IMG/VR virus record: IMGVR_UViG_3300000295_000002
Location: 1-64,000 of that record
Length of the DNA: 64,000 nucleotides
Reading direction: 5' to 3' (one strand)
Source of the DNA: a virus
In this document: one piece after another, positions 20,040-64,000 of the stretch
How positions within the stretch are numbered: position 1 is the first letter of the stretch
Layout of the letters: every line of letters begins with the position of its first letter
Made by a program: the position numbers and the translations under genes
Notes under the pieces: generated by a model
Seen by the model: the letters and a program-made list of their open reading frames with translations, nothing else
What the model was told of the DNA's origin: nothing
The model's database searches: none

Positions 20040-20195
20040 AAAACTCAACGACTTATCCCAAGCAGTTGAGAAAAAAATAAATTATTTAAGTAAAACAAAA
20101 CACTTAAAAAGTGTCGATTCCAAATAAAGTACAACTACTTTCACAAGCTGTCATACAAGTATGAAAGATAATTAATAATTAAAAAATGTATTGAG

Positions 20196-20266
20196 TAGTT
20201 CCAGACTGAATCGAACAATCTCTAAGAGAACCAAAATCTCTTGTGCTACCGTTACACCATAGAACC
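20196..20266 (-). tRNA. tRNA-Gln (anticodon TTG)
   Basis: Hand-folded cloverleaf: acceptor GGTTCTA/TGGAACT, anticodon arm AGAGA-TTTTGGT-TCTCT, T arm GATTG-TTCGATT-CAGTC. Confidence 0.75.
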
Positions 20267-20359
20267 ATGAAGCATCATATTCTCACGAACTTGATGCTAA
20301 GATTTAAAAAGCTAATTAAGCACTTTACCTTATAACCTTATAACCAAAAAAATGAGTGT

Positions 20360-20430
20360 TGCAGAGTGCAGGATTCGAACCTGCGACCTCTAGGACATGA
20401 AACTAGCGAGCTACCACTGCTCCAACCTGC
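20360..20430 (-). tRNA. tRNA with CAT anticodon (Met or Ile2)
   Basis: T arm GCAGG-TTCGAAT-CCTGC and anticodon loop TTCATGT. There is one acceptor mismatch, one anticodon-stem mismatch, and a short 8/9 junction. Confidence 0.6.
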
Positions 20431-20562
20431 GATTTGTGCAGCCTATCTTCACAGACAGACTGCATTGCCATCATTGTCAAATTCAAATTCAAATTTTGTT
20501 AATTAAAATATAAACAAACAAGTAATCAAATAAAATATTTATGCAAAAACATTTAGAACTTT

Positions 20563-20654
20563 GGAGATATTGTCGGATTCGAACCAACACTTCCATACGA
20601 TAAGAACGGTATCTTCAAGTTGTATGACGTGCTTCCGTTTACACTAAATATCTC
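20563..20654 (-). ncRNA. tRNA-shaped RNA with expanded anticodon arm (92 nt)
   Basis: Acceptor GAGATAT/ATATCTC, D arm GTG-TAAACGGAAG-CAC, T arm GTTGG-TTCGAAT-CCGAC. The stem CATAC/GTATG encloses 23 nt, made of an 8-nt bulge plus the hairpin GATA-CCGTTCT-TATC. Confidence 0.55.
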
Positions 20655-20808
20655 TTTGTTGTTATTTAATTAAAGTATTGAGAAGTAATCTCTACTTTAA
20701 GTAGTGTTTAAGTCTCATTCTTTGACTTAACTCTGTTCAGAGTTAGCTAGACTTCTATATTCGTAATAAACGTTGTACTATCTAATAATAATAATAATTG
20801 AAAATTTG

Positions 20809-20908
20809 TGCAGGGAGGCGGAATCGAACCGCCACTATCTCACACGATAAGAAGAGGTATTATCTATTGTGCGAGGTGTGCAAGAATACCACTTACACCA
20901 TACCCTGC
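20809..20908 (-). ncRNA. tRNA-shaped RNA with expanded anticodon arm (100 nt)
   Basis: Acceptor GCAGGG(T)/(T)CCCTGC and T arm GGCGG-TTCGATT-CCGCC. The stem CACAC/GTGTG encloses 30 nt, made of an 11-nt bulge plus the hairpin GATAA-TACCTCTTC-TTATC. The D region is irregular. Confidence 0.5.
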
Positions 20909-21343
20909 TGTTTTATGTACCTAAAACCATGGAACTTTCTGTCGTTTGTGAATGCCACGATATTAATCGTTTCCGTATTCCCGATACAGCTAGCATTGAC
21001 GTTCCGTATGACACTCCATACATATTATAAATATCTTACACGTAAGATGGCAATAATACATACTTCGACTAGAATACTACATAGCAAACGATACAGACCT
21101 ATATTATGCCCTTTGCTTGTGCTGATGTTTCAGCATAGTTCATCGGTATAGTCTATGTAATATCTGTTACTGACTAGTTTTTCGTATGTCGTGCGTCCTT
21201 TTCGCCAGGTCACGGCATCCATTGATGCTCTCCGGCTACTTCTTTTCCACGCATACTATATTCTGTGCGTCAATATGTCAAAGAACTCTTCTCTAGCTTT
21301 CAGTTTCATCACTTATAGTGATAATCTGATTCTAAAAGAATTG

Positions 21344-21417
21344 CGGTTTCAGCAGGATTCGAACCTACGACCTATCGGTTAACAGCCGACCGCTCTAACC
21401 ATCTGAGCTATGAAACC
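21344..21417 (-). tRNA. tRNA-Asn (anticodon GTT)
   Basis: Clean cloverleaf: GGTTTCA/TGAAACC, D arm GCTC-AGATGGTTA-GAGC, anticodon arm GTCGG-CTGTTAA-CCGAT, T arm GTAGG-TTCGAAT-CCTGC. Confidence 0.85.
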
Positions 21418-48941: not shown

Positions 48942-51900
48942 CTAATTCATAAACACCTTGATACCATTTCTTCCTTGCTTGTGACCGCCCTTTACACAGC
49001 TGGTCAGAGTGTCGCGAATATCAGTAAGTATTGTTGTCTGCAATCTCAACTCAATGAGTACAGGACTGCTTGATGTATCTTGTGTTATCGCGCTGATACT
49101 ATTGCCGAGCTTCTCTAACAGAGTGTCGCGGATGATACGAATGTCTGCTTGTTGAGTAGCTACATAAAACCTGAGAGAATTGAGTATCGATTCCAACGCC
49201 TGTGCGGTTGATTCTGTATCAGACTGAATACCTTGCTGCAAAGCAGAGATATTTGAACTGCCTTTTGGTTTATATCCTAATCCATCAACGAATGATTTCA
49301 ACATATCAGAAACACCTTTCAGTTTATCCTTACCGGTTGTCATAATATTATCCAATTCAGCTTTAACCAAATTCAATCCATTATTTCCACCATCGCTTCC
49401 TTGTTCGACCGCATTGTCAATCTTTTTAAACAACGGCTCTAGCATCTTACCAACAATACGTTGTGTAGCTTGCTTAACTATGAGGTTCTGTATATACTCA
49501 TCGAATTTATCATTAAGTGCTTCGAGAGCATCGCTTCCTTCGTTGTAAGCATCAACCCAAGTCTTTGCAAACTCCTCTGCTGCCGACTTATAGTTAGCCT
49601 TTGTCCCGAATCCGCCAAGTTGTTCTGTAAGACTTTGTTCTGCCTTCTCGATAGCCTTGTTGTTGGCTTCGATTTGTTTGCGGTACTCTTCAATCTTATC
49701 ATTATCGGTCTTCTTCTTGTCCTGCTCTGCTTTTATCATTGATTCAAGGTTGGCATTCTGAGTTTTGAGATTCTTAACCATCTCATCATTGTATTGTGCC
49801 AAACGTTCAATATCAAAAGCATTATCCATAGCATCTTTGAGTTCGCTGTATCTCTCTCGCAGTTTTTCAATCGCCTTTTGGTGATTTTCAATCTGCTTTT
49901 GCAGTTTTTTATCTTTTGTTCCCCATCCGAAGATGCCGCCAAGAGTTTTTCCGATGCCTCCGATAACACCTATCGTACCTTTGACAACAGAGAATGGTCT
50001 AGTAATATCAATACCTTCAAGAGAAGAACCAATCTTACTGATTCCATCTACAACCTCTGATAAATCGTCAGACATTTCGATGTTAGCACCCCAGTCATTC
50101 AATGCGCTAAAAAGTTCTGTAACGGAACTAGCTGCATCAGAGAAGTTTTGCCCGATATTCTGAACTTGCTGTTGTAAAGTCTTCTGCAACTTCTGTCCGT
50201 TTCGTATCTGCTCTGCTTGCTTTTCTGTTATCTTTCCTTGCGCTACAAGCTGGTCTGTTATTACACGAAGTCTTTCCTTGTCAATATCCCAAAGGATTCT
50301 TGCCTGAATGGCTTCTTTTGAAGCAACACCATATTTTATTACTGCATTATTGTAAGCAATCTCTGCATTTTTGACATCCTTATTCGCATTGCTTTGGTCG
50401 TTTTTCAATATCTGCTCTTTTTGGGTAGCATCAATATACTCTTCCTCTAGCTTTTTGCGCTGCTTGGCAAATTTCAGGTATTCCTTGAAATTCTTGCCAA
50501 TGTTACTATAAGGATTTCTCTCAACAAGTAAAGCATCTATCTTATTAATCTGCTCAACTATCTGTTTTAATTGCTCTGGAGTGAGATTTTTCATCGAAGA
50601 ACGTAATCCTTCAAGTCTCGCTTTCATTGCAGTAAGCACGCGGTTTGATGTGTGGTCTAGATTCTCAAAGATAGAAATATACATATCGCTATTCTGAAAA
50701 TCTTTCCAAGAATTAGTATCTGTCTTTGAAGCATATTGCTTATCAAGGTTATCTTGAAGCTGCTTCTGCAAATCTTTGTTCTTGGATATATTCGCATTGC
50801 TTTGGATTTTCTGCTTTTCCTCAATGTACCACTTATCCAACTGTAACTGGTCGGAAAGTTGCTGCTTGTATGCCTTAATCAGCTCTTGTGCTTGATTAAT
50901 TTGGTCTTGATAGACTTCCTTATCAAGTTTCTGCATTTGTGACGCGTATTCCTTTGCAACATCATCACCCCACTTATTTTGGTCTTTACCCCATTTTGCC
51001 TCGAAATCATCTGTAATAGACTTTCGCACATCATCGAATGAAGAGGTTAAGTCACCGAACATGCTTTTGATGATGCTATCAGAAAGACCTTCACCTTTGA
51101 GTTTCTTAAACAAATCGAGCTGTGAGAATGCTTCTTGCGCATTGTTCTTCGCATCGTCAAGTTGTTGCTTGAAATACTCCTCATCAATATCAAGACGGAT
51201 TTCGGTAGCGTTGCGTAATGCGCTGCCACGCTTTCCGAGTTCCTTATATAGGCTTGCAAGATATTCTATCTTCTTTGCAATAGTCTGGCGGTCTGGGATA
51301 AAGTTGTTTATATTCATACCAACATTCTTTGCCGCCAACGCAAAGTGCTTACGAACATCGGCTGTGGCTTGCTCTTCGCCTTCGTATTTAATGAGTTTCT
51401 GATATTCAGAACTCATATCCTTCAACAGAGAAATGCGCTCGTTGATAATATCACGCTGTACCCTATCGTGTTTAGTGGTATTTTTTCTGATTTTATTGTA
51501 CCCCATAATACGGTCGGCAGCTTCCTTGTAACCTTGCCCCAACTGAGAAATATCCTTGTATAGGTCGTTTATCTCCCTTGTGGTTGCAGCCTCATTATAC
51601 CCAGCCAACTTCATTGTGCCACCTTTGAGATTGTGTCGCTTAGTCACAAGTTCTTGCAGCTTTTTAAGTTGTTCTTGTGCCTCTGCATCAAACTCTCCGT
51701 ATGCGCTTTTAGGGTCTAGTTTGATAGGGTCGTAAGTAAAGGTGATATGATAAGTGTTATTAGCAAACGCCTTATCCATCTGTGCCTTAATGGACGCAAT
51801 ATCATTCTTCGCTTGTGTTGTATCAAGTCTTGCTGTAACTTTAAAATACTCCTTCGCGTGTTTTTTAGACCAACTATTCCATCCTTCCTCTGCTGCTACA

Positions 51901-54563
51901 GTATCAAGAATGAGTTCTACGGTTTTCTTGTCGGCAATTCTATTAAGATATCCAAGCGAAGTTTCAAGCTCTTTATCAAACTCTTCTGCTTTACTTGTAA
52001 TATCAGCAAAGAGACCGCTGTATAATTTTTGCAATGGAACAAGCTGTTCCCAAATACCACTGCCTTCTCCTGATAATAGTATTACTTTGCGGATTGCCTC
52101 TTGCATAGCTTTGTAATATTCAAGTTCATCCGCATAGTCTTCTTTGTTTTGCTTAACAGAATGAAGGTATTCCTTTGCCGTGCCATTTAAAGACTGATAA
52201 TTTATCTTTAATATGTTTACAGCTTGGTCTATCTTTTCTGTATTGGAAAGCATTTCGTCGATTGCATCATTGTACTGATTTGCATCTTTCGTTATTCCGT
52301 CAGAAATAAATCCATCAGGGTTTTCGGCAATTTTTCTTCTTGCCTTTACAACCAAGTCTTGGAATTGCAGTAGTTTAACTTGCAGGTTTCTGAACGTTTT
52401 ATCAAGTTCAGCTTCGTTAAGACCTAAAACGTTTAATTTTATATCAAAGCCCTTATCGTTTAGAGATTTAATGAGCTTTTCAATAATTGCGCGCTTTTTC
52501 TCGATTGCATCATTTCTTGAATAACTTTGTTCTTTGTTGTTTGCACCATCAATAGCATTTCCAAGTTCAGCGTATTGCCTTGCGAGGTCAAAGACTTCTG
52601 CTTTTTCCTTTACGTGTTCCGCATTTATTTTTTCAATCTGCTCATTATAATCAGAGTATAAAGAATACAATTTATATAAAGCAGAAAAAACTGCCGCAAT
52701 AGCAATAGTGTAAATGTTTGACGCAAGAGCATATTTAAGGTTTTTGCCAAAAGTCAATGCAGCAGCACCAGCAGACTTTATACCGCTAGTAAGCAGTTTC
52801 CAAGTTGTTAAATTCTTTGTTGCGTTTGCAGCCACATTTGAAGTAAACATCGCACTGAAAGCAACGCCAGTCTTTACCGATTGGAGATACATAATCGACA
52901 ATACGGAAGCAAGGGCGATACCTACATTCTTTATAGCCTCCCAATGCTTTAGTAATTCTGTTGCGGTAGAAATCATTCCCTTAAACAAGCCATCGTTAGC
53001 CTTGCCAATATCATTGAGCATCACATCGAAAGCATCCTTCAAGTTGGAAATCTTACCTTGGAGAGTTTCAGCCTGTATCTCTTGCATATTGTAGAATGTT
53101 CCACCCTTATCGGTAATGCGTTGGAATATTGCCTCAACATCCTCAAATGTAACCTTGCGCTTGGAAATCATATCAACAATCTGTGCAGTCGTGTACGCTT
53201 CTCCCTTAACTTCCTTGAAGTATTGTTGCAACTCACCATACATATTGATACCAGCCTCAGTAAACTGACGAACCTCAGAACCGCGAAGGTATGCAGCAGC
53301 CTTGACTTGTCCGTATGCAAGGATAAGTCTTCCCATATCAACGCCAAGACCTGCTGAAACATCGGCAAGTCGCTTGGTTGTATCATAAAGTTTATCAGAC
53401 TCAATTCGGTAAGCGGAAAGTTGTCGTGTGTAATCCACCAAGTCCTTGATACGGAAAGGTGATTTAACGGCAAGTTCTACTGTTTTGTTGAAAATCTCGT
53501 CTGCCTTTGGCTTGTTCTGCAAGATAGCTTCGAGTGAACGCTCTGAAAGTTCAAACTGACCTCTGACTGATGCAATCTGCTCGACAAAATTCTTGACAGA
53601 ACCCACTGAGAATGCAAATGCCATACGCTGTGCCCAACGTGACATATATCCAGCCATATATGATGTTTGTTCGGTCAACGCGCGAGAATTAACACCAGCC
53701 TCTTTCAGGTTTTTGTTATGTTGCTCAATGGCAGCATTGAGAATATCCAATTTTCGCTTATAATCAGCATCTGTTTGAGACAACTTCATACGAGCCTCTT
53801 TCAGATATTCAATAGCGCGTACTTGGCGATTGAGTGTATTTGCAGTAGCAGAGAAATCCAATGCTCCTTGATAAGTTGTATTGGATTTGTAGTTTTTGTT
53901 TTGATAGTCTTTTGCCCTATCGGAATAAAGCTTTCTCTGTTTGTTGTTGTATGATTGTTCTGCGCTAACCAATCTGTCAAGAGCCTTCTGAAAAGCAACA
54001 ACACGTTCATTATACATCTGTTGCTGATATTTCAGTTCGTCTTGAAGCGATTTCTTGCGCTTTATGAGCGCATCTTGGTCTGCCTTGGTGAGGTTATTGC
54101 TTGTATCTCTAAGCATTCTTTCAATCCCACCAATTTCTTGCTTTAACTCAGCAATATTCATACCGCTAGCACCATTTGCCGATTCCTGTAATCTCTGAAA
54201 TGCAAGTGCCGCTTGCATAATACCACTAGTGCCAGAACCATTCATCTTAGATAGCTGTGCTACCATATTTTGAATGTTCTGTGCTGCTGACGTAATATTA
54301 TTGTTCGTGTTACCTACATTTGAGATGCCATTGCTTGCATTTGCAGCAGATGCATTGATTGTTGCGAGTTTTGCTATAACTTGGTCTAAAGAATCAAGGA
54401 ACGGCTTAGTACCAACAGACATATCCTTGAAAGATTGTGTTACACTAGACGCGGTATTTTTAGCCGTATCTTGTATGTCTTTCAATTTCTTGTCTGCTTG
54501 TTCTATAGCATCTAACGCACTTTTAGGAATGGTTAGAGCTGCTCCTAATGATGAATCTGCCAT
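48942..54563 (-). CDS. tail tape measure protein
   Basis: 1873-aa coiled-coil-rich ORF with a hydrophobic central segment, located after two small chaperone-position genes. Confidence 0.8.
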   Translation of the reverse strand: MADSSLGAALTIPKSALDAIEQADKKLKDIQDTAKNTASSVTQSFKDMSVGTKPFLDSLDQVIAKLATINASAANASNGISNVGNTNNNITSAAQNIQNMVAQLSKMNGSGTSGIMQAALAFQRLQESANGASGMNIAELKQEIGGIERMLRDTSNNLTKADQDALIKRKKSLQDELKYQQQMYNERVVAFQKALDRLVSAEQSYNNKQRKLYSDRAKDYQNKNYKSNTTYQGALDFSATANTLNRQVRAIEYLKEARMKLSQTDADYKRKLDILNAAIEQHNKNLKEAGVNSRALTEQTSYMAGYMSRWAQRMAFAFSVGSVKNFVEQIASVRGQFELSERSLEAILQNKPKADEIFNKTVELAVKSPFRIKDLVDYTRQLSAYRIESDKLYDTTKRLADVSAGLGVDMGRLILAYGQVKAAAYLRGSEVRQFTEAGINMYGELQQYFKEVKGEAYTTAQIVDMISKRKVTFEDVEAIFQRITDKGGTFYNMQEIQAETLQGKISNLKDAFDVMLNDIGKANDGLFKGMISTATELLKHWEAIKNVGIALASVLSIMYLQSVKTGVAFSAMFTSNVAANATKNLTTWKLLTSGIKSAGAAALTFGKNLKYALASNIYTIAIAAVFSALYKLYSLYSDYNEQIEKINAEHVKEKAEVFDLARQYAELGNAIDGANNKEQSYSRNDAIEKKRAIIEKLIKSLNDKGFDIKLNVLGLNEAELDKTFRNLQVKLLQFQDLVVKARRKIAENPDGFISDGITKDANQYNDAIDEMLSNTEKIDQAVNILKINYQSLNGTAKEYLHSVKQNKEDYADELEYYKAMQEAIRKVILLSGEGSGIWEQLVPLQKLYSGLFADITSKAEEFDKELETSLGYLNRIADKKTVELILDTVAAEEGWNSWSKKHAKEYFKVTARLDTTQAKNDIASIKAQMDKAFANNTYHITFTYDPIKLDPKSAYGEFDAEAQEQLKKLQELVTKRHNLKGGTMKLAGYNEAATTREINDLYKDISQLGQGYKEAADRIMGYNKIRKNTTKHDRVQRDIINERISLLKDMSSEYQKLIKYEGEEQATADVRKHFALAAKNVGMNINNFIPDRQTIAKKIEYLASLYKELGKRGSALRNATEIRLDIDEEYFKQQLDDAKNNAQEAFSQLDLFKKLKGEGLSDSIIKSMFGDLTSSFDDVRKSITDDFEAKWGKDQNKWGDDVAKEYASQMQKLDKEVYQDQINQAQELIKAYKQQLSDQLQLDKWYIEEKQKIQSNANISKNKDLQKQLQDNLDKQYASKTDTNSWKDFQNSDMYISIFENLDHTSNRVLTAMKARLEGLRSSMKNLTPEQLKQIVEQINKIDALLVERNPYSNIGKNFKEYLKFAKQRKKLEEEYIDATQKEQILKNDQSNANKDVKNAEIAYNNAVIKYGVASKEAIQARILWDIDKERLRVITDQLVAQGKITEKQAEQIRNGQKLQKTLQQQVQNIGQNFSDAASSVTELFSALNDWGANIEMSDDLSEVVDGISKIGSSLEGIDITRPFSVVKGTIGVIGGIGKTLGGIFGWGTKDKKLQKQIENHQKAIEKLRERYSELKDAMDNAFDIERLAQYNDEMVKNLKTQNANLESMIKAEQDKKKTDNDKIEEYRKQIEANNKAIEKAEQSLTEQLGGFGTKANYKSAAEEFAKTWVDAYNEGSDALEALNDKFDEYIQNLIVKQATQRIVGKMLEPLFKKIDNAVEQGSDGGNNGLNLVKAELDNIMTTGKDKLKGVSDMLKSFVDGLGYKPKGSSNISALQQGIQSDTESTAQALESILNSLRFYVATQQADIRIIRDTLLEKLGNSISAITQDTSSSPVLIELRLQTTILTDIRDTLTSCVKGGHKQGRNGIKVFMN

Positions 54564-54582
54564 AATTCAAAAGTTTAAGAGT

Positions 54583-54807
54583 TTATAAAATAGGTATTCC
54601 AAGGTCATTGAGATTTCGTAAATCCTCTGCACCATTGATTACCTTTGCATTCTTTAATTTGTCGTTCTTCTGATTTTTGTCTTTGTCTGACGAAATATAT
54701 TCAATATGAGTAAAATCCATAGACGCAAGGCGAATCTGCGGAACGGTCATTCTCCACTTATATTCTTCTTGCGAGCACCATGTGTTGGCACGTAAGAAAT
54801 CTATCAT
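54583..54807 (-). CDS. tail assembly chaperone-position protein (small)
   Basis: Synteny directly upstream of the tape measure gene. Confidence 0.4.
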   Translation of the reverse strand: MIDFLRANTWCSQEEYKWRMTVPQIRLASMDFTHIEYISSDKDKNQKNDKLKNAKVINGAEDLRNLNDLGIPIL

Positions 54808-55361
54808 TTGTCCGTATTCTGTTCGTGATGGGATAATTCGGTTGCTTGCTTCTTCCTCATCAGAGCTTGATTGCGGACGGTCTGAATCACATTGGTACTC
54901 GCGAAGAAAAAATCCACATCTAGCAAATTGAGAATTTCAACGAGTAATGTTGCCCAATCCTTGATGTCATAGTCTCCCCAAAGCAACTGGTCGTAAACTT
55001 GTTGGTATTCCTCAGAATCAATGCGTTTTTTGTCATTGAGCAAGGATAGTGTGATTACTCTTGCCACCGATGGAATATTGATAGCAAACTCCTTGATAAC
55101 GTCACCCATTGATAAGTTTTCGCCCTTGACTATCTTGCAAGCTTCCTCTGCAATCATCCATTGAGTGCCTGGTTTCAATGCTCTTATCTCCCACTCTGTA
55201 CCTTGTAGTTTTACAATTGTAGGAGAATCATTCATAATTTGCGCCAGACGTTCCATTGCAGCATCAGACAAAGGAGAACTAGGTAACACCTTATTCTCGT
55301 CTTCTATAGCTTGTTTCTTAGCCTTATTCGGGTCTTTTTGTGCTCTATATACTTTTCCCAT
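54804..55361 (-). CDS. tail assembly chaperone-position protein
   Basis: Synteny; ATGA overlap with the next gene. Confidence 0.4.
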   Translation of the reverse strand: MGKVYRAQKDPNKAKKQAIEDENKVLPSSPLSDAAMERLAQIMNDSPTIVKLQGTEWEIRALKPGTQWMIAEEACKIVKGENLSMGDVIKEFAINIPSVARVITLSLLNDKKRIDSEEYQQVYDQLLWGDYDIKDWATLLVEILNLLDVDFFFASTNVIQTVRNQALMRKKQATELSHHEQNTDK

Positions 55362-55370
55362 ATATATGAA

Positions 55371-55820
55371 TTACTTTCTAATCACACTTACTGTTCCATT
55401 ATACTTCTTGGATAGGTTTTGTAGCTTTTGAAACGACATTGAAATAACTCTGTAAGATTGTTTCAGATTACCACCGCCATCTTCCAATATCTTAGCGTAT
55501 GGCATAGTCGCAACAACTGCCAAATCAATTACTCCACTAGGGGAATAATCGTTTTTGAGATATTCGTTTATCGCCTCACGACCTTTAATTTCTTCTCCAT
55601 ACCAATTCTTGCCTTTGGATGCTTTTGGTGAGGACGATAAGTAACCTATCTTCTCAAGCTTGCCTTCGACATAAATGCCATATCCGTAAGAATCATAGAG
55701 GTTGTATGTTCGATGTGTGTACGTAATCTCTTGAATACATTCTCTTAACACATTCTTTGCATCCTTGTCTAATTCCTTCGTAATAAGCTTTAATGCTTTT
55801 TGGTATAATGTTTCAGCCAT
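55371..55820 (-). CDS. HK97 gp10-like head-tail joining / tail completion protein
   Basis: VATMPYAKILEDGGG resembles the gp10-family YA..vE.G motif; position in the module. Confidence 0.45.
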   Translation of the reverse strand: MAETLYQKALKLITKELDKDAKNVLRECIQEITYTHRTYNLYDSYGYGIYVEGKLEKIGYLSSSPKASKGKNWYGEEIKGREAINEYLKNDYSPSGVIDLAVVATMPYAKILEDGGGNLKQSYRVISMSFQKLQNLSKKYNGTVSVIRK

Positions 55821-55902
55821 AAATGATAAAACTTAAAAAGGAGCGGACAGCATTAAAGCCGCCGCCCCTTGTATATAGTCGAGAATTGTTGAAGAACCTA
55901 CA

Positions 55903-56493
55903 TTATTCACCAGAAGTTGGCAATGAATAGTTGTGGTCGACATAGAATGGTGTGCGAACAGTCTTAGCACCAACGGTAAGCGCAATATCCTTGGCAGTAC
56001 CAGCCAATGCAATACGAGCCAAGTTTGAATTGAGAGATTCAATAGTCAACTTAGAATTGAGCTGAACCTTTGGGAGAACGTAAGCCTCCATTGTAGTTCC
56101 ATTAGGTTGAACCTGTACAACATCAATCTTTGCATACTTTGCTTTGTAAATCGAAGGTGCAAGAGTCTTCTTTCCTGTTGCATCGTCTGTAAAGTCACAC
56201 AATGCAGTCAAAAGTTCCTTCTGCGTATCTCCAATCTCTGCTGCAAACTGCCACTTACCAAGCTTAACAATGGAAATGATAGGAGAGTCAGAAGTCTCAC
56301 ACTCAATATCGGTGGTATCGTTATCATCTTGTGAAATAGATGTCGTGTCCTCAATAACATCCTCGAGAATGTAAGAATCACCCTTTGGAGCAGATTCGTC
56401 ACTCTCTGTGCCATCGAACAATGTGGCAACAATATAATCTGGCTTGATGAACTTGACAGCTCCCGCACCAGTATTTATAACCTTTTTCGCCAT
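55903..56493 (-). CDS. major tail protein candidate
   Basis: Position upstream of the chaperones; size about 200 aa. Confidence 0.45.
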   Translation of the reverse strand: MAKKVINTGAGAVKFIKPDYIVATLFDGTESDESAPKGDSYILEDVIEDTTSISQDDNDTTDIECETSDSPIISIVKLGKWQFAAEIGDTQKELLTALCDFTDDATGKKTLAPSIYKAKYAKIDVVQVQPNGTTMEAYVLPKVQLNSKLTIESLNSNLARIALAGTAKDIALTVGAKTVRTPFYVDHNYSLPTSGE

Positions 56494-56537
56494 AATATAA
56501 TGAGTTTTAAATGTTACATTTAATAGATTTTATATAT

Positions 56538-56936
56538 TTATCTTGCGATAACTGAAACAGAAATCATCTGAAAATGGAACTGGCGGTTTGAATCATATCC
56601 GCTATCACGGTAAAGAACTTGAATTGTATAGTCCTTATTATTAGAGTGTTTAATCACATCGTCAAGGATTCCTTCCATCTTATCCAGTAACTTTACATTC
56701 TTTCTAAGTGGAGTTCCCTTTGGTCTTGCATAGAGATAAATGTTAGCATAGCCAGAGGAATAACCGCCATAATCTCTTTGCTGACCAACGTCCACATTGA
56801 CAAAATCATCCCAGTTCTTACTAGTTGTAGGTGGTAATTCTCCGACAAATATGTTGTCTGAGATTTTTCCCTTAGTAAGAAGCATCGAAAAGAAATTCTC
56901 AATTCGAGACAATCTGCGATTAATCCTCTGTGCCAT
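56538..56936 (-). CDS. head-tail connector-region protein
   Basis: Synteny only. Confidence 0.35.
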   Translation of the reverse strand: MAQRINRRLSRIENFFSMLLTKGKISDNIFVGELPPTTSKNWDDFVNVDVGQQRDYGGYSSGYANIYLYARPKGTPLRKNVKLLDKMEGILDDVIKHSNNKDYTIQVLYRDSGYDSNRQFHFQMISVSVIAR

Positions 56937-56977
56937 ACCTTGTTATCCTAAATACATTTTACCTTATGATGAAAAAA

Positions 56978-57409
56978 CTAAATATCAGTACCCTTGATGT
57001 AAGCTACACATCCGTGCATCTGTGTCGGATAAACGCCGATAACCATTCCGTCAACGTCCATTCCGTACATTTTTCCACGGAAACGAATGCCAGCATTTAA
57101 ACATTCTGGAATATATTCTTCATCTTTTCCGTCTTCTCCTTCTTTCGTTGGCATCGGAAAATAGATTGTATATCCTAGCGTAACAACACCCGAATTAAAG
57201 AGTTTGTTTGTTTCCTGAATATCGCAATCAGTTTCAAAAATGATAGTTTCTACATTTTTTGTTTCTGACTCACCTGCACTAGTATCAGTATCACCTAACA
57301 TATCCCCATCGCTTCCGATAAGGTCTCCATCTTCTTTCGGTTTTTGTTCCGAGCGGTAGAACACGCCATGATAGGCATATTCATCCAAAGCATTTCTGTC
57401 AGTGTACAT
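56978..57409 (-). CDS. head-tail connector-region protein
   Basis: Synteny only. Confidence 0.35.
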   Translation of the reverse strand: MYTDRNALDEYAYHGVFYRSEQKPKEDGDLIGSDGDMLGDTDTSAGESETKNVETIIFETDCDIQETNKLFNSGVVTLGYTIYFPMPTKEGEDGKDEEYIPECLNAGIRFRGKMYGMDVDGMVIGVYPTQMHGCVAYIKGTDI

Positions 57410-57412
57410 AGC

Positions 57413-57799
57413 TTACCAATCTGTTTCTTCAATCCATTTAACCTCTCCATCGGTTTCATTGAGAGCATCAAGTTTCTCATCCTCTCCATACTTCTTGTAA
57501 AGTCTTTTGAGTTCTGATTTGATACTCAGCAATGCCGCCGACGTGATGGTCTGAGCACCTACTGTAAGAGTATATGCGCCATGTTGGTTTGTGGTTGATG
57601 CTGTCTGATAGACACCGAATACAATCTTTTCCAAGAGTGCAATCTTACATCTGTCTTTCTGTTCTTCTGTCAAGTCCAAATAAGACTCAACATCAGAAAC
57701 GCCGCAATCCAAAGCGACATTGTTTAGTGCCGACTTGTCAAAGACAAAGTTAGTCATGCCGCTCAAATAGTCCAATATATCAAACTTCGATGCTGCCAT
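57413..57799 (-). CDS. head-tail connector-region protein
   Basis: Synteny only. Confidence 0.35.
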   Translation of the reverse strand: MAASKFDILDYLSGMTNFVFDKSALNNVALDCGVSDVESYLDLTEEQKDRCKIALLEKIVFGVYQTASTTNQHGAYTLTVGAQTITSAALLSIKSELKRLYKKYGEDEKLDALNETDGEVKWIEETDW

Positions 57800-57850
57800 T
57801 GAGAGATAAATGAATTAAATGTTATCGTATATTGTGAGTGAACCACACCA

Positions 57851-59032
57851 TTAACTACCTGCTGTTGAGGTATCAATGATTACGTGGTTCATAAAGTCGA
57901 GAAGTGCAGGGCAAGCCGACATCATGACCTTAGTCTGCCATTCGCGGAACTGACCGTTATCCATTGCGTAGTTTCCTACGGTAACGAGTCCGTCAGCGAT
58001 TGAAGCCCAAGAAACATCAATGTTCTTTGCGCCATACTTCTGTTGAAGTGTCTGGTCGTAGATAGGAGTCCACTTGAACTCAACGCTATCACCGGTAGGG
58101 CAAAGTACAACAATCTTATCATCCCAACCTTGCACGAATGTGTCAGTTGTAACAGTCTTGTTGCGCTCCTTCTCAACTACAATCTCGATAGGTGAAAGAC
58201 CTGTCATGTCTGAAAGTGATTTCTTGAAGTCTTCGTCCAAAATCTGCATGTTAGCAGTATATGCGCGGTCGTGAGCCTTGCACCAGTTGATGTACCACTC
58301 CTTAACTTCCTTGTTCTGCAAGAATACATCGCGGTACATCTTGCGAGTCATCTTCCATACGAGAGAAATCTCAGTACCGCCACGCTCATCGCGATAATCG
58401 TCTTCAATCTTTCTCATCTGTGAGATAAGGTTGCAGTCTGGGTCAGTCCAAGTTTTCGCACCAGCTTTCTTGCGGTTCTCTGTTGGGAATGGCTCAACCT
58501 TCTGCAAGAACTGCTGCAAACCTTCACCCTTGCCCTTCCAACTCATCTTTGCAGTTGTCATAATCTGTGCTGTCAAGTTAGAGAGTGTTGCCTCTGCTGA
58601 GTTCTTACCTACCTGAACAACATCGCGCACCCAAGCAGCCATAAGGTCTGCATCGTTTCCGAACTGCTCAAAGAGTTTTTCCTTATACTCGCGTTGTCTT
58701 GCGTTTTCAGACCACTTGTAACCGATGAAGTCTGGAATTGTACCTGTGTACATCTCCAAGCCCTCGTTGTCCATTTCTGGAGCATCGCCAAGTGGAGCGC
58801 GAAGGTGCATCAAAGGAGCTGCCTCTGCCTTGCGAGACTTGATGCTGAATGAAGCCACGCCATCGTAGTCTGTAGGTGTAGGCATAGAAGCTCTACGACC
58901 TTGTGTGAGATACCATCCATAGTTGGTATAGAGCAACCCCTTGGTGTTCAAGAAGGTTCTCAGAAAGTTGATGTTATCCTTAGAAGAGAACAACTTGGCG
59001 TATCTCGAATTGTTAAAATCAAATTGTTGCAT
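57851..59032 (-). CDS. major capsid protein candidate
   Basis: 393 aa, downstream of a scaffold-like gene; resembles lambda gpE-type capsid proteins from memory only. Confidence 0.55.
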   Translation of the reverse strand: MQQFDFNNSRYAKLFSSKDNINFLRTFLNTKGLLYTNYGWYLTQGRRASMPTPTDYDGVASFSIKSRKAEAAPLMHLRAPLGDAPEMDNEGLEMYTGTIPDFIGYKWSENARQREYKEKLFEQFGNDADLMAAWVRDVVQVGKNSAEATLSNLTAQIMTTAKMSWKGKGEGLQQFLQKVEPFPTENRKKAGAKTWTDPDCNLISQMRKIEDDYRDERGGTEISLVWKMTRKMYRDVFLQNKEVKEWYINWCKAHDRAYTANMQILDEDFKKSLSDMTGLSPIEIVVEKERNKTVTTDTFVQGWDDKIVVLCPTGDSVEFKWTPIYDQTLQQKYGAKNIDVSWASIADGLVTVGNYAMDNGQFREWQTKVMMSACPALLDFMNHVIIDTSTAGS

Positions 59033-59092
59033 ATCCTGAATACTTAAATTAATGATATGTTATCATATTATTATCCTATTGAATTGGAGCGG

Positions 59093-59863
59093 TTAGAATC
59101 CGAACCATCCGTTCTCTGTTCTTGTGTTCATCGCAAGTACGGCTGGTGGAAGCTTGTTGCACTTTGCCAAGTTCAAGATTACTCTTGAATCCTTAATCAA
59201 TGCTGGAGCGTAAGAGTACTGAGCACCCTCGCCATCCTCAACATTGCTTGATAAGTTAGGGTCATAGAAGAAGTCGTTATCGCGGTCGAAGTAAGCGTTA
59301 GGATTTGTAACCATAGGAGCTACGGATGAGCCTTTCTTTTCTGCCTCTACGAGAATATCGCCAACATTCAATACAACTGCAAGAGTTGCTGAAAGAGTGA
59401 GCTTCCAAACATCCTTGCCACCTTCGGTTGCTTTCTCTACAGCTGTAACGGTAACACCCAAAGACTTCTTCGTAAAGTCTGACTGTGCCACCATGATATT
59501 ATCACCTGCAAAAGGAGTGTGATGATAGCCATCATTGACAACCAAAATATCAGTATCGGTGATTGTAGCTGCCTTTGCCAACTCGTAATACTTCAAAATC
59601 TTGACGGTCTGACCGCCATTCTTGCCGTAAGTGTCTGGGTCATATTCGCAAAAATCACCTGCGTAAATCTTAGCGCGACCCTTGAACGGATTTTTGATAA
59701 CACCACCAAAAGGAGGGTAAACGAATGCGTCCTTGTTGCCGCTTACGAGGTTAATGAAAACGCTTCTATGACCGCCAATCTTACCATGTGCTTGGATAAG
59801 TGTACGACCGCCAAAGTGACCGCCATATCCATGCTTCAAATAGAAATCATCTGCTGCTGCCAT
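59093..59863 (-). CDS. capsid-associated protein (decoration or auxiliary, uncertain)
   Basis: Position between the scaffold-like and capsid genes. Confidence 0.3.
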   Translation of the reverse strand: MAAADDFYLKHGYGGHFGGRTLIQAHGKIGGHRSVFINLVSGNKDAFVYPPFGGVIKNPFKGRAKIYAGDFCEYDPDTYGKNGGQTVKILKYYELAKAATITDTDILVVNDGYHHTPFAGDNIMVAQSDFTKKSLGVTVTAVEKATEGGKDVWKLTLSATLAVVLNVGDILVEAEKKGSSVAPMVTNPNAYFDRDNDFFYDPNLSSNVEDGEGAQYSYAPALIKDSRVILNLAKCNKLPPAVLAMNTRTENGWFGF

Positions 59864-59898
59864 AATTTGTAAATTTGTTAAATAGTGAATGAATAATG

Positions 59899-60528
59899 TT
59901 ATTCGCCTGCGTCAGGGTTCACGATACCCACAACATCAGAGAAATCGTCAGCCTTATCGTTGTCACCACCGCCAGCACTACCTGGAGTGTTGTTGTTTGA
60001 CTTCGAATGAGAGAGATTGTAGAACTCCTCTGCATCCGTAAATTCCTGTTCGATGTCAGAATCCTTGGTGAGGTTCAACTTGCTCATGTACTTGTCAATC
60101 CACTTACTATCGTTGATACCTTTCTCCTTGAACTTGGCGAGAAGTTCACTACGTTTCTGTGATACAAGCTTAGAGGCTTCGTGCTCTGCATCCTTCTTCT
60201 CTAGAGCTTCCAAGCGTTCCAAAAGCTTCTTTTCTACAGCCGAAGGCTCTTTGTTATCGTCCTTTGGATTTGGCTTAATGTCGGGATGCTCATCGTTCCA
60301 TTTCTTGATGAAGTCGGCATTGTCCTTCTCGTAGTTGCCGTTAAGGGAAACATACTGCGGCAAAATCTTCTTCACCAAATCATCTAACTCTGTATCTTCA
60401 CCAACTAAGAGGTCAAAGTGGGAATCACTCAAACTCTTGATTGTCTTTTCACTGATGGAAAGGTGTTTTCCGTTTGCAGTGAGCTTTGCTTTTAGGGTGT
60501 CTAAAAGTTGTTGTTTTGTAAACTTCAT
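59899..60528 (-). CDS. scaffolding protein candidate
   Basis: Acidic, helical or coiled-coil composition; first gene of the head module. Confidence 0.4.
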   Translation of the reverse strand: MKFTKQQLLDTLKAKLTANGKHLSISEKTIKSLSDSHFDLLVGEDTELDDLVKKILPQYVSLNGNYEKDNADFIKKWNDEHPDIKPNPKDDNKEPSAVEKKLLERLEALEKKDAEHEASKLVSQKRSELLAKFKEKGINDSKWIDKYMSKLNLTKDSDIEQEFTDAEEFYNLSHSKSNNNTPGSAGGGDNDKADDFSDVVGIVNPDAGE

Positions 60529-60657
60529 ATTACTAATTTTTAAAATTCTGCTGCAAAGATAATTAAATAATGTGGTGATTTTTAGGTTTTTAGAAACTCT
60601 ATTTGTTACGTAACCAATATAGAATTAATTTCACTCTATTATATATTATAAATTAGG

Positions 60658-60665
60658 TATCTTTG
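60658..60665 (+). promoter_or_regulatory. TAnnTTTG -7-like box ending 4 nt upstream of the terL ATG
   Basis: GGTATCTTTGCAGCATG. Confidence 0.4.
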
Positions 60666-60669
60666 CAGC

Positions 60670-63327
60670 ATGAACACGAATAAAGATATAGAAATCAGAC
60701 CACAAGAGGGCTTTCAAATGTCCTTTGCAAGTAGTAATGTCGATGTGGTTTTCGGTGGTGGAAATCTTGGAGGGGGCAAGCTACAGCCGCTTGATTCCAA
60801 GATACTTACACCATCGGGATGGCAGACTATGGGCGATATGCAAGTTGGTTCTAAGGTGATGACTCCATTTGATGGAATTGCCACCGTGATTGCTGTATTT
60901 CCACAAGGCGTGAAAGATGTGTATGAACTTACAACGCTAGATGGACGAAAGTGTGAATGCGGTCTTGAACATCTATGGACGGTACGAACTCCAAAGCAAG
61001 TGCATAAGTATCGTTCTCATAATAAGGAATGGGGATGGACTATGACTTTGCAGACAAAAGACCTTATTGATGGGTTGGAGCAAGGAAAGAAATACTTCAT
61101 CCCAAACAACAAAGCTATAGAGTTTGGTGAAAAAGAACTGCCAATACCGCCATACGTATTAGGTGTTATGCTCGGTGATGGATGCCTAACTATTTGGCGT
61201 AACGAGAAAGGTTTTAAAATTTCCAATACAGAATGGGATATAATAAATAAGGTAGCTAAATTGACGGACACAACAAGGGTGTACGAGCAACCAAGCTGCG
61301 TTACTAAATTGTTCTATACACCACACTATAAGGAGTATAAGGAATATTTAAGAGAAGAATGTTTGTTGGATTATTCCTACAACAAGTTTATTCCTGAAAA
61401 ATATCTTCACTCTAGCATTGAACAAAGAAAGCAATTGCTAGCAGGTTTATTTGATACCGATGGAAGTGTAGAACCTTACGATAATAGTTATAGCTTCTCT
61501 ACGACAAGTGTAAGGCTTAAAGATACATTTATTGAGCTGTGTCGTAGTCTTGGATATACATGTTCTTGCAGAGAAGACAGAAGAGAAAAATATACGAAAG
61601 GTGTTGCTTACGACATAGTAATACGCACCGACGATATTATATTCACAAGCGAGAAGCATAAGGCTAGATACAATAATGAGCGGAACAAAACAAGAAAGTA
61701 CGCTAAAGGCAACGACCATTCACGGATTGTGTCTATCAAAAAGGTAAGAAGAGCCGAGTGCCAGTGTATTTTGGTTGATGATGAAAAGCATTTGTATATC
61801 ACGGATGATTACATTACAACCCACAACTCGTATGGTCTTGTACTTGCGATGGCAGAGCCGTTAATGACTGACCCAGATTTTCGCGCAATGATTTCACGCC
61901 GTTCACTTGGTAATCAAAAAGCAGGTGGAGGATTCGTAGAGAAGTTCAAACAGATATTCGGAGCTGATTTCGTGAAAATCAGAGAGAGCGAGAATCCGCG
62001 CGTTACATTTCCGAATGGAACGTTTGTCGATTTGACGTATCTTGACGATTCCAATATGGATAAGTTGAGAGAGCGCGCGAAAGGATGGGAGTACGATTTG
62101 ATTGCGATTGACGAGTTGACGGAGATGACTTGGGAAGTTTTCTCATACGTCATGACTCGAAACAGAGGTCAGAGCAAGACGTTTACAGGTAAGTTCTTTG
62201 CAACACTTAACCCGAAGCGTAGCCACTGGACGAGAATATTTCTTGATTGGTATATTGGCTCAGATGGTTTTATCATCCCAGAGCGTGATGGTGTAGTCAG
62301 ATACTTCTATTGTGCAGGACCGACTGTTAAGGATGTTGTTTGGGGAATGTCTAAGCGAGAAGTCTATGAAAAATGTAAGATAGATATAGATAGAAAGCTT
62401 AAAACCATTGGCGGCAACTTTGGATATGAAGTAATGATTAAGAGTTTTGTTTTCTATCAAGGTAAACTTGGTTCAAACAAGAAGATGCTTGAAAACAACT
62501 CTGGCTATTTAGGTTCTGTAGCGGCATCGGGAGGTAGGATGGCACAAGCTCTTATGGAGGGTAACTTCAATGTTGACCCAGAAGAGGAAGAGGATATTCC
62601 GATTCCTAGCCAAGCGGCAAGAGATTGCTTCGTAAAAGACCCTGCTGTGAATGGTGACAAGTGGATAACAATCGACTTGGCAGACTACGGTAAGGATAAC
62701 ACTCTGATGTTGTCATGGAACGGATTCCATATAGTCAATTACGAAATCGTGATGCATTCAACACCGCGAATTAATGCGGAAAGAGCTAGATTATTCGCGG
62801 CGAGTGAGGGAGTGGCAGAAAGCCATATTATCTATGATGCTACGGCAGGTAGGTATTTCAATGACTATATACCAGATGCTATCCCTTATATATCAGCAGC
62901 AAAGGCAATGGGAATTTATTATTTGTCTGCTATGACAATAAAAGACCTATGTTACTTGCGACTGAGCTACATGATTAAGCGAGGACAGCTTACATTCTCT
63001 GATAAGGTTGCGAATGCGGTTTATACGCATCAAAACCTCAAATACAGAGTTTCCATACAGAATGAGTTCATGGAAGAATGCGCGGTAGTTCGCTTTGATA
63101 AGATGCAGAGTGGAAAGAAGAAGTTGCAGAGCAAGAAGGAAATGAACCGAAATCTTGGAAAAGACCGTTCTATGGATTTGCTCGACCCTTGCGCAATGAG
63201 AATGTACCCATGTTTGAATATGGAGTATGGTAGCGAGCTACAAGAAGGGTTCAGACTCGCAGCACAAGAAGTTGAAGAGAAAAATCCTAATGCTCAGAGC
63301 ATTTATGATGATACGTTGTACTATTAA
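60670..63327 (+). CDS. terL: terminase large subunit interrupted by an intein
   Basis: Walker A GGGNLGGGK|...|SYGLVLA is restored when residues 38-386 are removed. A Walker B-like YDLIAIDELTE lies downstream. Confidence 0.85.
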   Translation: MNTNKDIEIRPQEGFQMSFASSNVDVVFGGGNLGGGKLQPLDSKILTPSGWQTMGDMQVGSKVMTPFDGIATVIAVFPQGVKDVYELTTLDGRKCECGLEHLWTVRTPKQVHKYRSHNKEWGWTMTLQTKDLIDGLEQGKKYFIPNNKAIEFGEKELPIPPYVLGVMLGDGCLTIWRNEKGFKISNTEWDIINKVAKLTDTTRVYEQPSCVTKLFYTPHYKEYKEYLREECLLDYSYNKFIPEKYLHSSIEQRKQLLAGLFDTDGSVEPYDNSYSFSTTSVRLKDTFIELCRSLGYTCSCREDRREKYTKGVAYDIVIRTDDIIFTSEKHKARYNNERNKTRKYAKGNDHSRIVSIKKVRRAECQCILVDDEKHLYITDDYITTHNSYGLVLAMAEPLMTDPDFRAMISRRSLGNQKAGGGFVEKFKQIFGADFVKIRESENPRVTFPNGTFVDLTYLDDSNMDKLRERAKGWEYDLIAIDELTEMTWEVFSYVMTRNRGQSKTFTGKFFATLNPKRSHWTRIFLDWYIGSDGFIIPERDGVVRYFYCAGPTVKDVVWGMSKREVYEKCKIDIDRKLKTIGGNFGYEVMIKSFVFYQGKLGSNKKMLENNSGYLGSVAASGGRMAQALMEGNFNVDPEEEEDIPIPSQAARDCFVKDPAVNGDKWITIDLADYGKDNTLMLSWNGFHIVNYEIVMHSTPRINAERARLFAASEGVAESHIIYDATAGRYFNDYIPDAIPYISAAKAMGIYYLSAMTIKDLCYLRLSYMIKRGQLTFSDKVANAVYTHQNLKYRVSIQNEFMEECAVVRFDKMQSGKKKLQSKKEMNRNLGKDRSMDLLDPCAMRMYPCLNMEYGSELQEGFRLAAQEVEEKNPNAQSIYDDTLYY
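60781..61827 (+). mobile_element. intein (349 codons) with LAGLIDADG homing endonuclease domain
   Basis: Block A-like LQPLDSKILTPSGW, EHLW, two dodecapeptides LGVMLGDGCL and LAGLFDTDGS, block F CQCILV, and a terminal THN followed by Ser+1. Confidence 0.8.
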
Positions 63328-63338
63328 TTTTAGAATAT

Positions 63339-63929
63339 ATGCTGAAAAAAGAAAATATAAAAATGATTCTTGAATCCGTGCGGATTGACTGGGATAAATG
63401 TGATGAGAAAGACATTGCATTTGCTATCCTCTGTGACGCATTGGAAGATAAGACTTTAGCGTATCGTCTTGCTTATCGTAAGAGTGAAAAGGATGCCGCG
63501 AAATTCTACGAAACTCCACGATTCAAGAAACTGCTAGATGTTCTAGAACCTTTCGGTATCGGCAATGTTAATAACAACGCTATTACCAAAGAAGAGAACA
63601 AAAACGAGCTTCTCAAAATGCTTGACAAGATAGACCAAGCTCTTAGCGACGGAAATCTTGAACCGAAAGATGCATTGAAGATGCAGACTGATATACGTGT
63701 AAAGCTGAATGACAAATTCGAAATGGAAGAGTCACAGAAGCAGAAACGAATCATTGTAGTACCAAGTAAGCATGATATTGTTTGCCCTACTACCAATAGA
63801 GAATGTAACTACTGGCCTTCAAGAAAGGCTTGTTGCAGACACTTCGGTTTGATTGACCCACAAGAGAATAACGATTCACAAAATAACAACGATGTTGAAC
63901 CATCATTAAATAACAATAGCGATGAGTAG
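63339..63929 (+). CDS. hypothetical protein
   Basis: ORF track. Confidence 0.55.
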   Translation: MLKKENIKMILESVRIDWDKCDEKDIAFAILCDALEDKTLAYRLAYRKSEKDAAKFYETPRFKKLLDVLEPFGIGNVNNNAITKEENKNELLKMLDKIDQALSDGNLEPKDALKMQTDIRVKLNDKFEMEESQKQKRIIVVPSKHDIVCPTTNRECNYWPSRKACCRHFGLIDPQENNDSQNNNDVEPSLNNNSDE

Positions 63930-64000
63930 AAAGAGACAAGACATAATCAATGATTTTTTGGAGAATCCTCAGAAATTGCTTCTGAAAAAGCCGTTTTTGA
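63922..64000 (+). CDS. hypothetical protein, N-terminal fragment (portal-position gene?)
   Basis: The ATG overlaps the upstream stop and the frame is open to the window edge. The function guess is from synteny only. Confidence 0.35.
   Translation, partial: MSRKRQDIINDFLENPQKLLLKKPFL

Follow-up and report, generated by a model that had tools for sequence, protein, structure and literature searches.

A divergent class 3-type intein with leucine at position 1 and a putative homing endonuclease in the terminase of a gut phage

Class 3 inteins are defined by a non-nucleophilic first residue in co-variation with a Trp-Cys-Thr (WCT) triplet and with Ser or Thr at the +1 position (Tori et al. 2010, PMC2807308). 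They sit in helicase-like proteins, phage terminase large subunits (TerL) included, and mostly in the ATPase P-loop (PMC2807308). In mycobacteriophage terminases, from which class 1 and class 3 inteins have both been reported, the TerL1-a insertion between the P-loop Lys and Thr is regarded as 'classic' (Kelley et al. 2016, PMC5050341), and among the 287 class 3 inteins of actinobacteriophages those with a canonical LAGLIDADG domain are almost all in TerL and Cas4 (Gosselin et al. 2025). In intein 1 of the mycobacterial Msm DnaB protein (Msm DnaBi1) the triplet is formed by Trp67, Cys118 and Thr137, with Cys118 as the initiating nucleophile and its replacement (C118A) abolishing splicing (Kelley et al. 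2018, PMC6195587). The subject here is an insert in terL of an uncultured Caudoviricetes phage of the gut, carried by IMG/VR virus record IMGVR_UViG_3300000295_000002, of which positions 1 to 64,000 were analysed (one stretch of 64,000 nucleotides, 'the window' below). Comparison of its residues with those of characterised relatives supports assigning the insert as a class 3 (WCT) LAGLIDADG intein with Leu at position 1, lodged in the Walker A loop of TerL.

Such an intein had been proposed in an original prediction made from the letters of the window, and its premise that terminase P-loops are known intein targets is borne out by the literature (PMC2807308, PMC5050341). What it described in the sequence proved correct throughout. 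Our reading is that the element is very probably bifunctional, with a class 3 splicing domain of the HINT fold and a PI-SceI-like homing endonuclease combined within terL.

Boundaries, block assignment and relatives

The interrupted terL open reading frame (60670-63327; this and the other features described lie on the plus strand unless stated otherwise) specifies a precursor of 885 residues, the stop codon being included in the coordinates. Its N-extein of 37 residues (60670-60780) ends in VVFGGGNLGGGK, that is in the first part of Walker A, GNLGGGK (60760-60780), with Lys37 as residue -1. The intein, 349 residues from Leu1 to Asn349 (60781-61827, terL codons 38-386), interrupts the Walker A loop in frame between Lys37 and Ser387. 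The C-extein, 499 residues plus the stop codon (61828-63327), starts at the Walker A Ser and spans what are putatively the remaining ATPase and the nuclease domains, its first residues from 387 onward being SYGLVLAMAE. At its N-terminus the insert reads LQPLDSKILT, beginning LQPLDSKILTPSGW, and at its C-terminus DDYITTHN, after which comes Ser. Conceptual excision joins the N-extein directly to SYGLVLAMAE and restores a Walker A motif, GNLGGGKS.

Nature has provided the same product. A search with the conceptually spliced protein retrieved from metagenomes an empty allele (P0001, representing a cluster of 1405 sequences) which has 536 residues, the predicted spliced length, is 99% identical and reads ...GGGNLGGGKSYGLVLAMAE... 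across the junction, precisely as the predicted spliced sequence does. The contig on which it lies (L001) is collinear with window positions 52990-64000 at 93-95% nucleotide identity and is without exactly 1047 nucleotides between GGCAA(G/A) and TCGTATGG, so that the intein as delimited above is, to the nucleotide, what the empty allele does not have; the junction of the latter is GGAGGAGGCAAA/TCGTATGGTCTT, the slash here and below marking the insertion point. Since the residues flanking each boundary differ (K/L and N/S), no shifted excision yields the same product, and the boundaries are unambiguous, fixed by the empty allele. Alignment to homologous inteins puts their residue 1 at the window Leu1. 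Removal of codons 38-386 to recreate a GGGKS P-loop, and Leu as first residue, had both been proposed at the outset, and the intein-less TerL returns the very same boundaries with no canonical Cys or Ser at position 1. For annotation purposes the gene is a 536-residue terminase plus a 349-residue intein, not one protein of 885 residues. When the window was searched with the intein by tblastn, no second intein or endonuclease copy was found in it besides the query itself.

The insert matches an intein-bearing terminase family (phrog_19299) at E = 2e-51 and, in a phmmer search of PDB sequences, gp41-1 (E = 1e-8) as well as the class 3 inteins Msm DnaB intein 1 (6BS8, E = 1e-5) and M. chimaera DnaB-1, all much more strongly than chance would allow. 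HMMER alignment to gp41-1 and Msm DnaBi1 locates the block A region, LQPLDSKILTPSG (60781-60819). Query Leu4-Asp5 is there aligned from residue 4 of both (for gp41-1 after an offset equal to a 3-residue tag) and therefore the non-nucleophilic Leu1 occupies intein position 1, the place of Cys1 in gp41-1 and of Ala1 in DnaBi1. In block B (residues 55-68, 60943-60984) the sequence GLEHLW is paired with SEEHLW in the engineered gp41-1_WCT, which makes His64 B:10 (60970-60972), Trp66 B:12 (60976-60978) and Gly61 B:7. Block F (residues 326-341, 61756-61803) falls within a stretch, 'rraecqCilvddekhlyitd.dyitTHN', which is aligned to 'rpsvpvrCvevdnpehlylagpgmvpTHN' of DnaBi1, the aligned Cys of the latter being residue 118. 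With Cys329 (61765-61767) thus placed on Cys118, it is the second Cys of ECQCILVD that is F:4, the predicted initiating nucleophile, and Cys327 is F:2. Block G (61807-61830) supplies Thr347 (G:5, 61819-61821), His348 and Asn349, followed by Ser387 (+1, 61828-61830).

All of the sequence features by which class 3 is recognized are in place: a residue other than Cys, Ser or Thr at position 1, Trp at B:12, Cys at F:4, Thr at G:5 ahead of His-Asn, and Ser at +1. The signature had been spotted in the original prediction from the block B EHLW, a block F Cys in CQCILV and the Thr ahead of the terminal His-Asn; the block assignment agrees, and adds only which of the two cysteines is F:4. Among the 25 sequences of the alignment used for structural modelling (A1), Cys60, His64, Leu65 and Trp66 are invariant.

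A wider survey was made by searching a full library with the intein (phmmer), which yielded 17,669 cluster representatives at E <= 1e-3, 3,146 of them at E <= 1e-30; key positions were mapped in the best 149 representatives, in 131 of which the N-terminus could be placed reliably. In these 131 diverse relatives residue 1 is Ala in 80, Pro in 18, Glu in 11, Gly in 7, Leu in 5, Ser in 4, Gln in 2 and Phe, Lys, Asn or Met in one each, and none of them has Cys or Thr there. Residue -1 is Lys in 101 of the 131. The positions with a presumptive role in chemistry are held far more tightly, with His at B:10 in 130, Trp at B:12 in 129, Cys at F:4 in 130, Thr at G:5 in 129, His at G:6 in 129 and Asn at G:7 in 130, and with +1 being Thr in 106 and Ser in 24. 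A free position 1 beside a near-invariant Trp-Cys-Thr is what a class 3 mechanism would predict. Closer to home, the 120 best TerL matches divide into 65 without an intein and 55 with one; all 55 of these inteins are at GK/S with Lys at -1, and they keep the His, Trp, Cys, Thr, His, Asn and Ser throughout, residue 1 being Leu, Gln, Glu or Met in 11 each, Ala in 10 and Cys in one.

The endonuclease domain and signs of mobility at the site

Between the splicing blocks lies a LAGLIDADG homing endonuclease domain, approximately residues 121-305 (61141-61695) as placed by Pfam and Foldseek. Both of the LAGLIDADG motifs originally pointed out are there, as YVLGVMLGDGC (motif 1, block C, residues 125-135, 61153-61185, with the acidic Asp133) and as LLAGLFDTDGS, the LLAGLFDTDG of which is motif 2 (block E, residues 219-228, 61435-61464, with the acidic Asp227). 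The Pfam families LAGLIDADG_3 (E = 1.5e-9, 38.4 bits with a curated cut-off of 22.5) and Hom_end (E = 2e-8, 34.7 bits with a curated cut-off of 21.1) both score above threshold. Asp225, Asp227 and Gly228 are invariant in the 25 aligned relatives and Asp133 is kept in 20 of them. The 5 others, terL inteins P0114, P0120 and similar, have Asn in its place (GNGC), and endonucleases of this type may be inactive or nickases. A phmmer match to PI-SceI pairs query residues 204-272 with residues 303-372 of the chain, an offset of 99, and if that match is ungapped Asp227 would fall on PI-SceI Asp326, which we take to be catalytic.

An AlphaFold2 model of the intein, built on the 25-sequence alignment, has a mean predicted local distance difference test score of 90.5 and a predicted template modelling score of 0.90. 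The structures in the PDB that Foldseek places at the top are those of PI-SceI (E from 1e-19 to 1e-17, template modelling score 0.71-0.76 on the query), next come TliVMA, PhoVMA and PI-PfuI, and the Prp8 intein and the Hedgehog HINT domain 1AT0 are also matched. Taken alone, the splicing domain superposes at 1.4-2.2 Å on gp41-1 (6RIZ/6QAZ), MchDnaB-1 (6RIX/6RIY) and MsmDnaBi1 (6BS8), and the middle domain matches I-DmoI and I-OnuI. A HINT fold and a two-motif LAGLIDADG fold are thus both found, by modelling, Foldseek and Pfam together, and the matches for the splicing and middle domains point to what would be a complete bifunctional intein.

How would such an endonuclease act? In mixed infections it would be expected to cut intein-less terL at the P-loop coding sequence, after which repair would copy the intein and, along with it, short tracts of the exteins on either side. 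Several comparisons have the appearance of such a history. Two sequences, P0013 and P0015, share 482 of 484 residues of the distal C-extein and have inteins only 33% identical, one belonging to the lineage of the window intein and the other to a second lineage (AETLDSQIVTPFG...GRCITVD...); in the immediate flanks they agree at 29 of 37 N-extein residues and at 12 of the first 15 C-extein residues, as would be expected if co-conversion had accompanied homing. No fewer than two intein lineages, approximately 31-33% identical, are in competition for the GK/S site in near-identical phage backgrounds, each with its own short extein flanks. In another pair with the same exteins P0024 has a 159-residue mini-intein without the LAGLIDADG core and P0025 a full intein of 352 residues. 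One site is thus represented in this phage clade as empty, as invaded, as endonuclease-less and as doubly contested.

Divergence between relatives can be read in the same way. The intein of contig L002 is 91% identical to that of the window, and the exteins are only 82% identical. Measured as the proportion of non-synonymous differences, the intein (0.055) is less diverged than the C-extein (0.118), which is consistent with a transfer that took place after the phages had separated. Close to the insertion point, comparison of window 60735-60780 with L001 10066-10111 reveals 10 synonymous third-position differences in the last 46 nucleotides before it; the first 65 nucleotides of terL are identical in the window and the empty allele and there is one difference in the first 51 nucleotides after the site. 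The clustered synonymous differences could be a co-conversion tract or could reflect divergence of the target site. The junction Lys codon is AAG in three intein-plus alleles and AAA in three empty ones, and from so small a sample (3 + 3) target-site immunity is not claimed, suggestive as the distribution is. Against L004 the endonuclease (window 61141-61695) has a synonymous substitution rate of 0.56, the C-extein one of 0.23 and the splicing blocks rates of 0.13-0.20, and P0003, P0004 and P0007 differ by replaced segments; this mosaic of the endonuclease among near-identical inteins suggests recombination inside the intein. A handful of sequences underlies these comparisons, and the cleavage in which they would originate is a predicted one.

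A rival reading is a splicing-competent intein whose endonuclease is inactive and which spreads by vertical inheritance or general recombination rather than by homing. The mini-inteins of 159 residues in sister phages are examples of loss of the endonuclease, Asn replaces the motif 1 Asp in a subgroup of the second lineage, and few sequences contribute to the flank patterns. In the window intein, however, Asp133 and Asp227 are both intact. Compared with L002, synonymous sites are saturated (proportion of differences approximately 0.7); non-synonymous divergence stands at 0.04 for the endonuclease and 0.06-0.09 for the splicing blocks, and the ratio of non-synonymous to synonymous substitution rates is approximately 0.02 and 0.04, respectively. 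Alleles with and without the intein occur side by side with exteins 99% identical, and intein-specific flanking tracts stand in an otherwise identical background. On balance an inactive endonuclease is unlikely.

Probable splicing mechanism, alternatives and the host phage

By the chemistry of its family, a bifunctional class 3 intein in terL would be expected to splice as follows. Cys329 (F:4), assisted by His64 (B:10) and with Trp66 (B:12) packing the active site, would attack the Lys37-Leu1 bond directly to give a thioester branched intermediate. Ser387 (+1) would then receive the N-extein by transesterification, Asn349 would cyclise with the help of His348 and so free the intein, and an O-to-N acyl shift would restore GNLGGGKS in an active terminase of 536 residues. 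Leu1 would be without a chemical role, and for that reason position 1 would be at liberty to drift among relatives.

Several considerations weigh against this account. The splicing chemistry, the block F branched intermediate and the cleavage of DNA are ones that we infer from sequence; directly observed are the boundaries, the fold, the identities of the residues and their conservation, purifying selection and the polymorphism with its co-conversion pattern. B:7 is Gly in the window intein and Ser or Asp in characterised class 3 inteins, with B:7 having proved dispensable in the Bethlehem DnaB intein (PMC2807308). Productive splicing was not obtained on grafting WCT onto the related class 1 gp41-1 intein (PMC7664689), so the triplet alone is no proof of mechanism; it is diagnostic through co-variation and is not sufficient. 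One relative from the second lineage, P0094 (VLAAGK/CGKIDSFVVT), has Cys1 together with WCT, and therefore residue 1 in the terL-intein clade is not always non-nucleophilic. Finally, the flank differences could have arisen by ordinary recombination instead of endonuclease-driven homing.

Would a class 2-like mechanism serve as well? Ser+1 would then attack the N-terminal junction directly and Cys329 would merely coordinate, as Asp does at F:4. Leu1 with Ser+1 is compatible with class 2 chemistry also, and the F:4 Cys does occupy the place of the coordinating Asp of inteins of classes 1 and 2 (PMC6195587). Class 2 inteins of the KlbA type, however, are without the WCT triplet (PMC2807308), each member of which is kept in at least 129 of the 131 relatives; in every class 3 intein tested neither Ser+1 nor Cys+1 could substitute for Cys F:4 (PMC5222942); and proven class 3 inteins are among the solved relatives nearest in sequence. 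A class 2-like route is accordingly very improbable.

Still less credible is a dead or degenerating insertion that does not splice, with terL then a pseudogene or functional only with the insert in place, in favour of which there is nothing specific. The reading frame is open through 885 codons, all of the catalytic residues are kept and purifying selection is strong. The allele is also abundant, the exact window protein being on 30 contigs (from NCBI, JGI, Logan and ENA), within a cluster of 783 sequences with contigs of up to approximately 100 kb. The insert splits the Walker A Lys and Ser, and as long as it stays in place a P-loop ATPase would be expected to have no activity. As to a class 1 intein with shifted boundaries and a canonical Cys, Ser or Thr at position 1, for which Ser6 and Thr10 near the proposed N-terminus might be enlisted, only removal of residues 38-386 regenerates the natural empty allele (GGGK/SYGL), by which such alternative boundaries are ruled out, leaving it a negligible probability.

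Within the class 3 intein proposed here the nucleophile has cysteine company. One CxC pair is in block B, Cys58 (B:4) and Cys60 (B:6) at 60952-60960, and the other is in block F, Cys327 (F:2) and Cys329 (F:4) at 61759-61767; Cys is at B:6 in 55/55 terL-family inteins and in 99/131 of the diverse relatives. From the conserved Cys at B:4, B:6 and F:2 it might be supposed that the four cysteines constitute a redox- or zinc-sensitive trap around the nucleophile, a supposition that we consider decidedly doubtful. If it were true, terminase maturation would depend on the redox or metal state of the anaerobic gut host, and DNA packaging with it, and the phage would have a counterpart of the Cys48-Cys118 oxidative switch in the mycobacterial DnaB intein. 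Residue 1 turns over rapidly (L/Q/E/M/A) among inteins otherwise approximately 90% identical, and on a lesser reading this turnover would tune the splicing rate rather than be neutral.

The host gene is a terminase large subunit. Excision restores a P-loop, the open reading frame matches phrog_979, 'terminase large subunit', at E = 4.8e-44 (the match to phrog_979/9526 spanning residues 387-640 of the precursor), and there is synteny with a packaging module. Terminase_6N gives 22.0 bits, equal to its cut-off of 22 and hence borderline. The cluster of the empty allele contains NCBI nr entry DAG77505.1, 'terminase large subunit [Caudoviricetes sp.]'. Two genes downstream of terL in related contigs is a portal gene of the SPP1 type, and portal, capsid-side and tape-measure genes are all near terL. 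The phage is without a near relative in culture: the nearest TerL from a cultured phage, that of a Bacteroides phage, has 26% identity across 95% of the query, and the match of highest identity of any kind (33%) is a partial one in an uncultured virus. A foreign base composition of the intein was considered and rejected: at 39.1% GC it shows no marked difference from the C-extein (42.3%) or the window (38.3%).

Elsewhere in the window, on the minus strand, are three tRNA genes (Gln-TTG, Met-CAT and Asn-GTT, 20195-21417) and an open reading frame of 1873 residues (48942-54563), the positional counterpart of the TMP_3 tape-measure gene in L001, the collinear contig. Transcription of the structural module diverges from that of terL.

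Comparison with known inteins

MP-Be (Bethlehem) DnaB, Msm DnaB-1 (6BS8) and Mch DnaB-1 (6RIX/6RIY) share with the window intein a non-nucleophilic residue 1, His at B:10, WCT, the terminal His-Asn and Ser or Thr at +1, and the flanks of Msm DnaB-1 (FGVGK/.../STLGL) mark the same kind of P-loop insertion, between Lys and Ser or Thr. The window intein departs from the mycobacterial class 3 inteins in having TerL rather than DnaB as host, Leu rather than Ala or Pro at residue 1, Gly rather than Asp or Ser at B:7, and extra Cys at B:4, B:6 and F:2; unlike the mini-inteins Msm and Mch DnaB-1, it has its LAGLIDADG domain in full. By sequence, the N-terminal splicing region has its best solved match (E = 1e-8) in the cyanophage-like gp41-1 (6QAZ; engineered WCT form 6RIZ), which likewise has Cys at B:6 and Thr at G:5, but the natural form of which, a split or mini intein, belongs to class 1 and has Cys1, with Phe at B:12 and Asp at F:4. 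PI-SceI (the VMA1 intein), PI-PfuI and TliVMA are built in the same way, with a two-motif LAGLIDADG endonuclease set into a HINT domain; PI-SceI, unlike the window intein, is of class 1, with Cys1 and Cys+1, and the sequence identity to it is approximately 16%.

TerL1-a has in common with the window intein both a terminase host and insertion between the Walker A Lys and Ser or Thr. When 50,697 phage records were searched with the intein by tblastn, 849 were matched, with identity to any intein of the collection not exceeding approximately 37%. One of the matched records is that of the cultured Klebsiella phage YC1 (OR493421), which has a TerL annotated 'intein-containing', with the junctions FGK/LSKLDS...EHYW...TQCIEVD...VTHN/T, and its intein resembles that of the window in combining Leu1, WCT and a LAGLIDADG domain at the Walker A Lys/Ser or Thr site. 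It differs in that the inteins are 35.5% identical, the TerL exteins are of another family, the YC1 gene is of approximately 1130 residues, and +1 is Thr there and Ser here. The P-loop intein of another cultured phage, Lactococcus phage 949 (L006, NC_015263, TerL gp058; SGK/ALDINT...NDEHIIP...MVCFKVD...VTHN/T), represents a variant form of the class 3 triplet, in which Ala1 goes with Cys at F:4 and Thr at G:5; having Ile instead of Trp at B:12, it was dropped as a WCT reference.

The expectation that a Leu1 class 3 intein with a homing endonuclease would be unusual is not upheld by these comparisons. Leu1 is a recurrent minority state (5/131, approximately 4%, of the diverse relatives), and with 11/55 terL-family inteins also having it, and phage YC1 having it at the same terminase site, it is neither new nor unique. 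What the locus does offer is a single insertion site at which empty, full-length and mini-intein alleles occur naturally and a second intein lineage competes. It makes a convenient system for the homing cycle and for co-conversion, and for asking how far residue 1 of class 3 inteins is at liberty to vary. As splicing tools, class 3 inteins that have Ser+1 and tolerate change at position 1 hold modest interest for engineering, and the endonuclease would add one more LAGLIDADG specificity. The current picture of intein function and distribution is unchanged by the window element, which takes its place as a divergent further example of the documented class 3 inteins of phage terminases.

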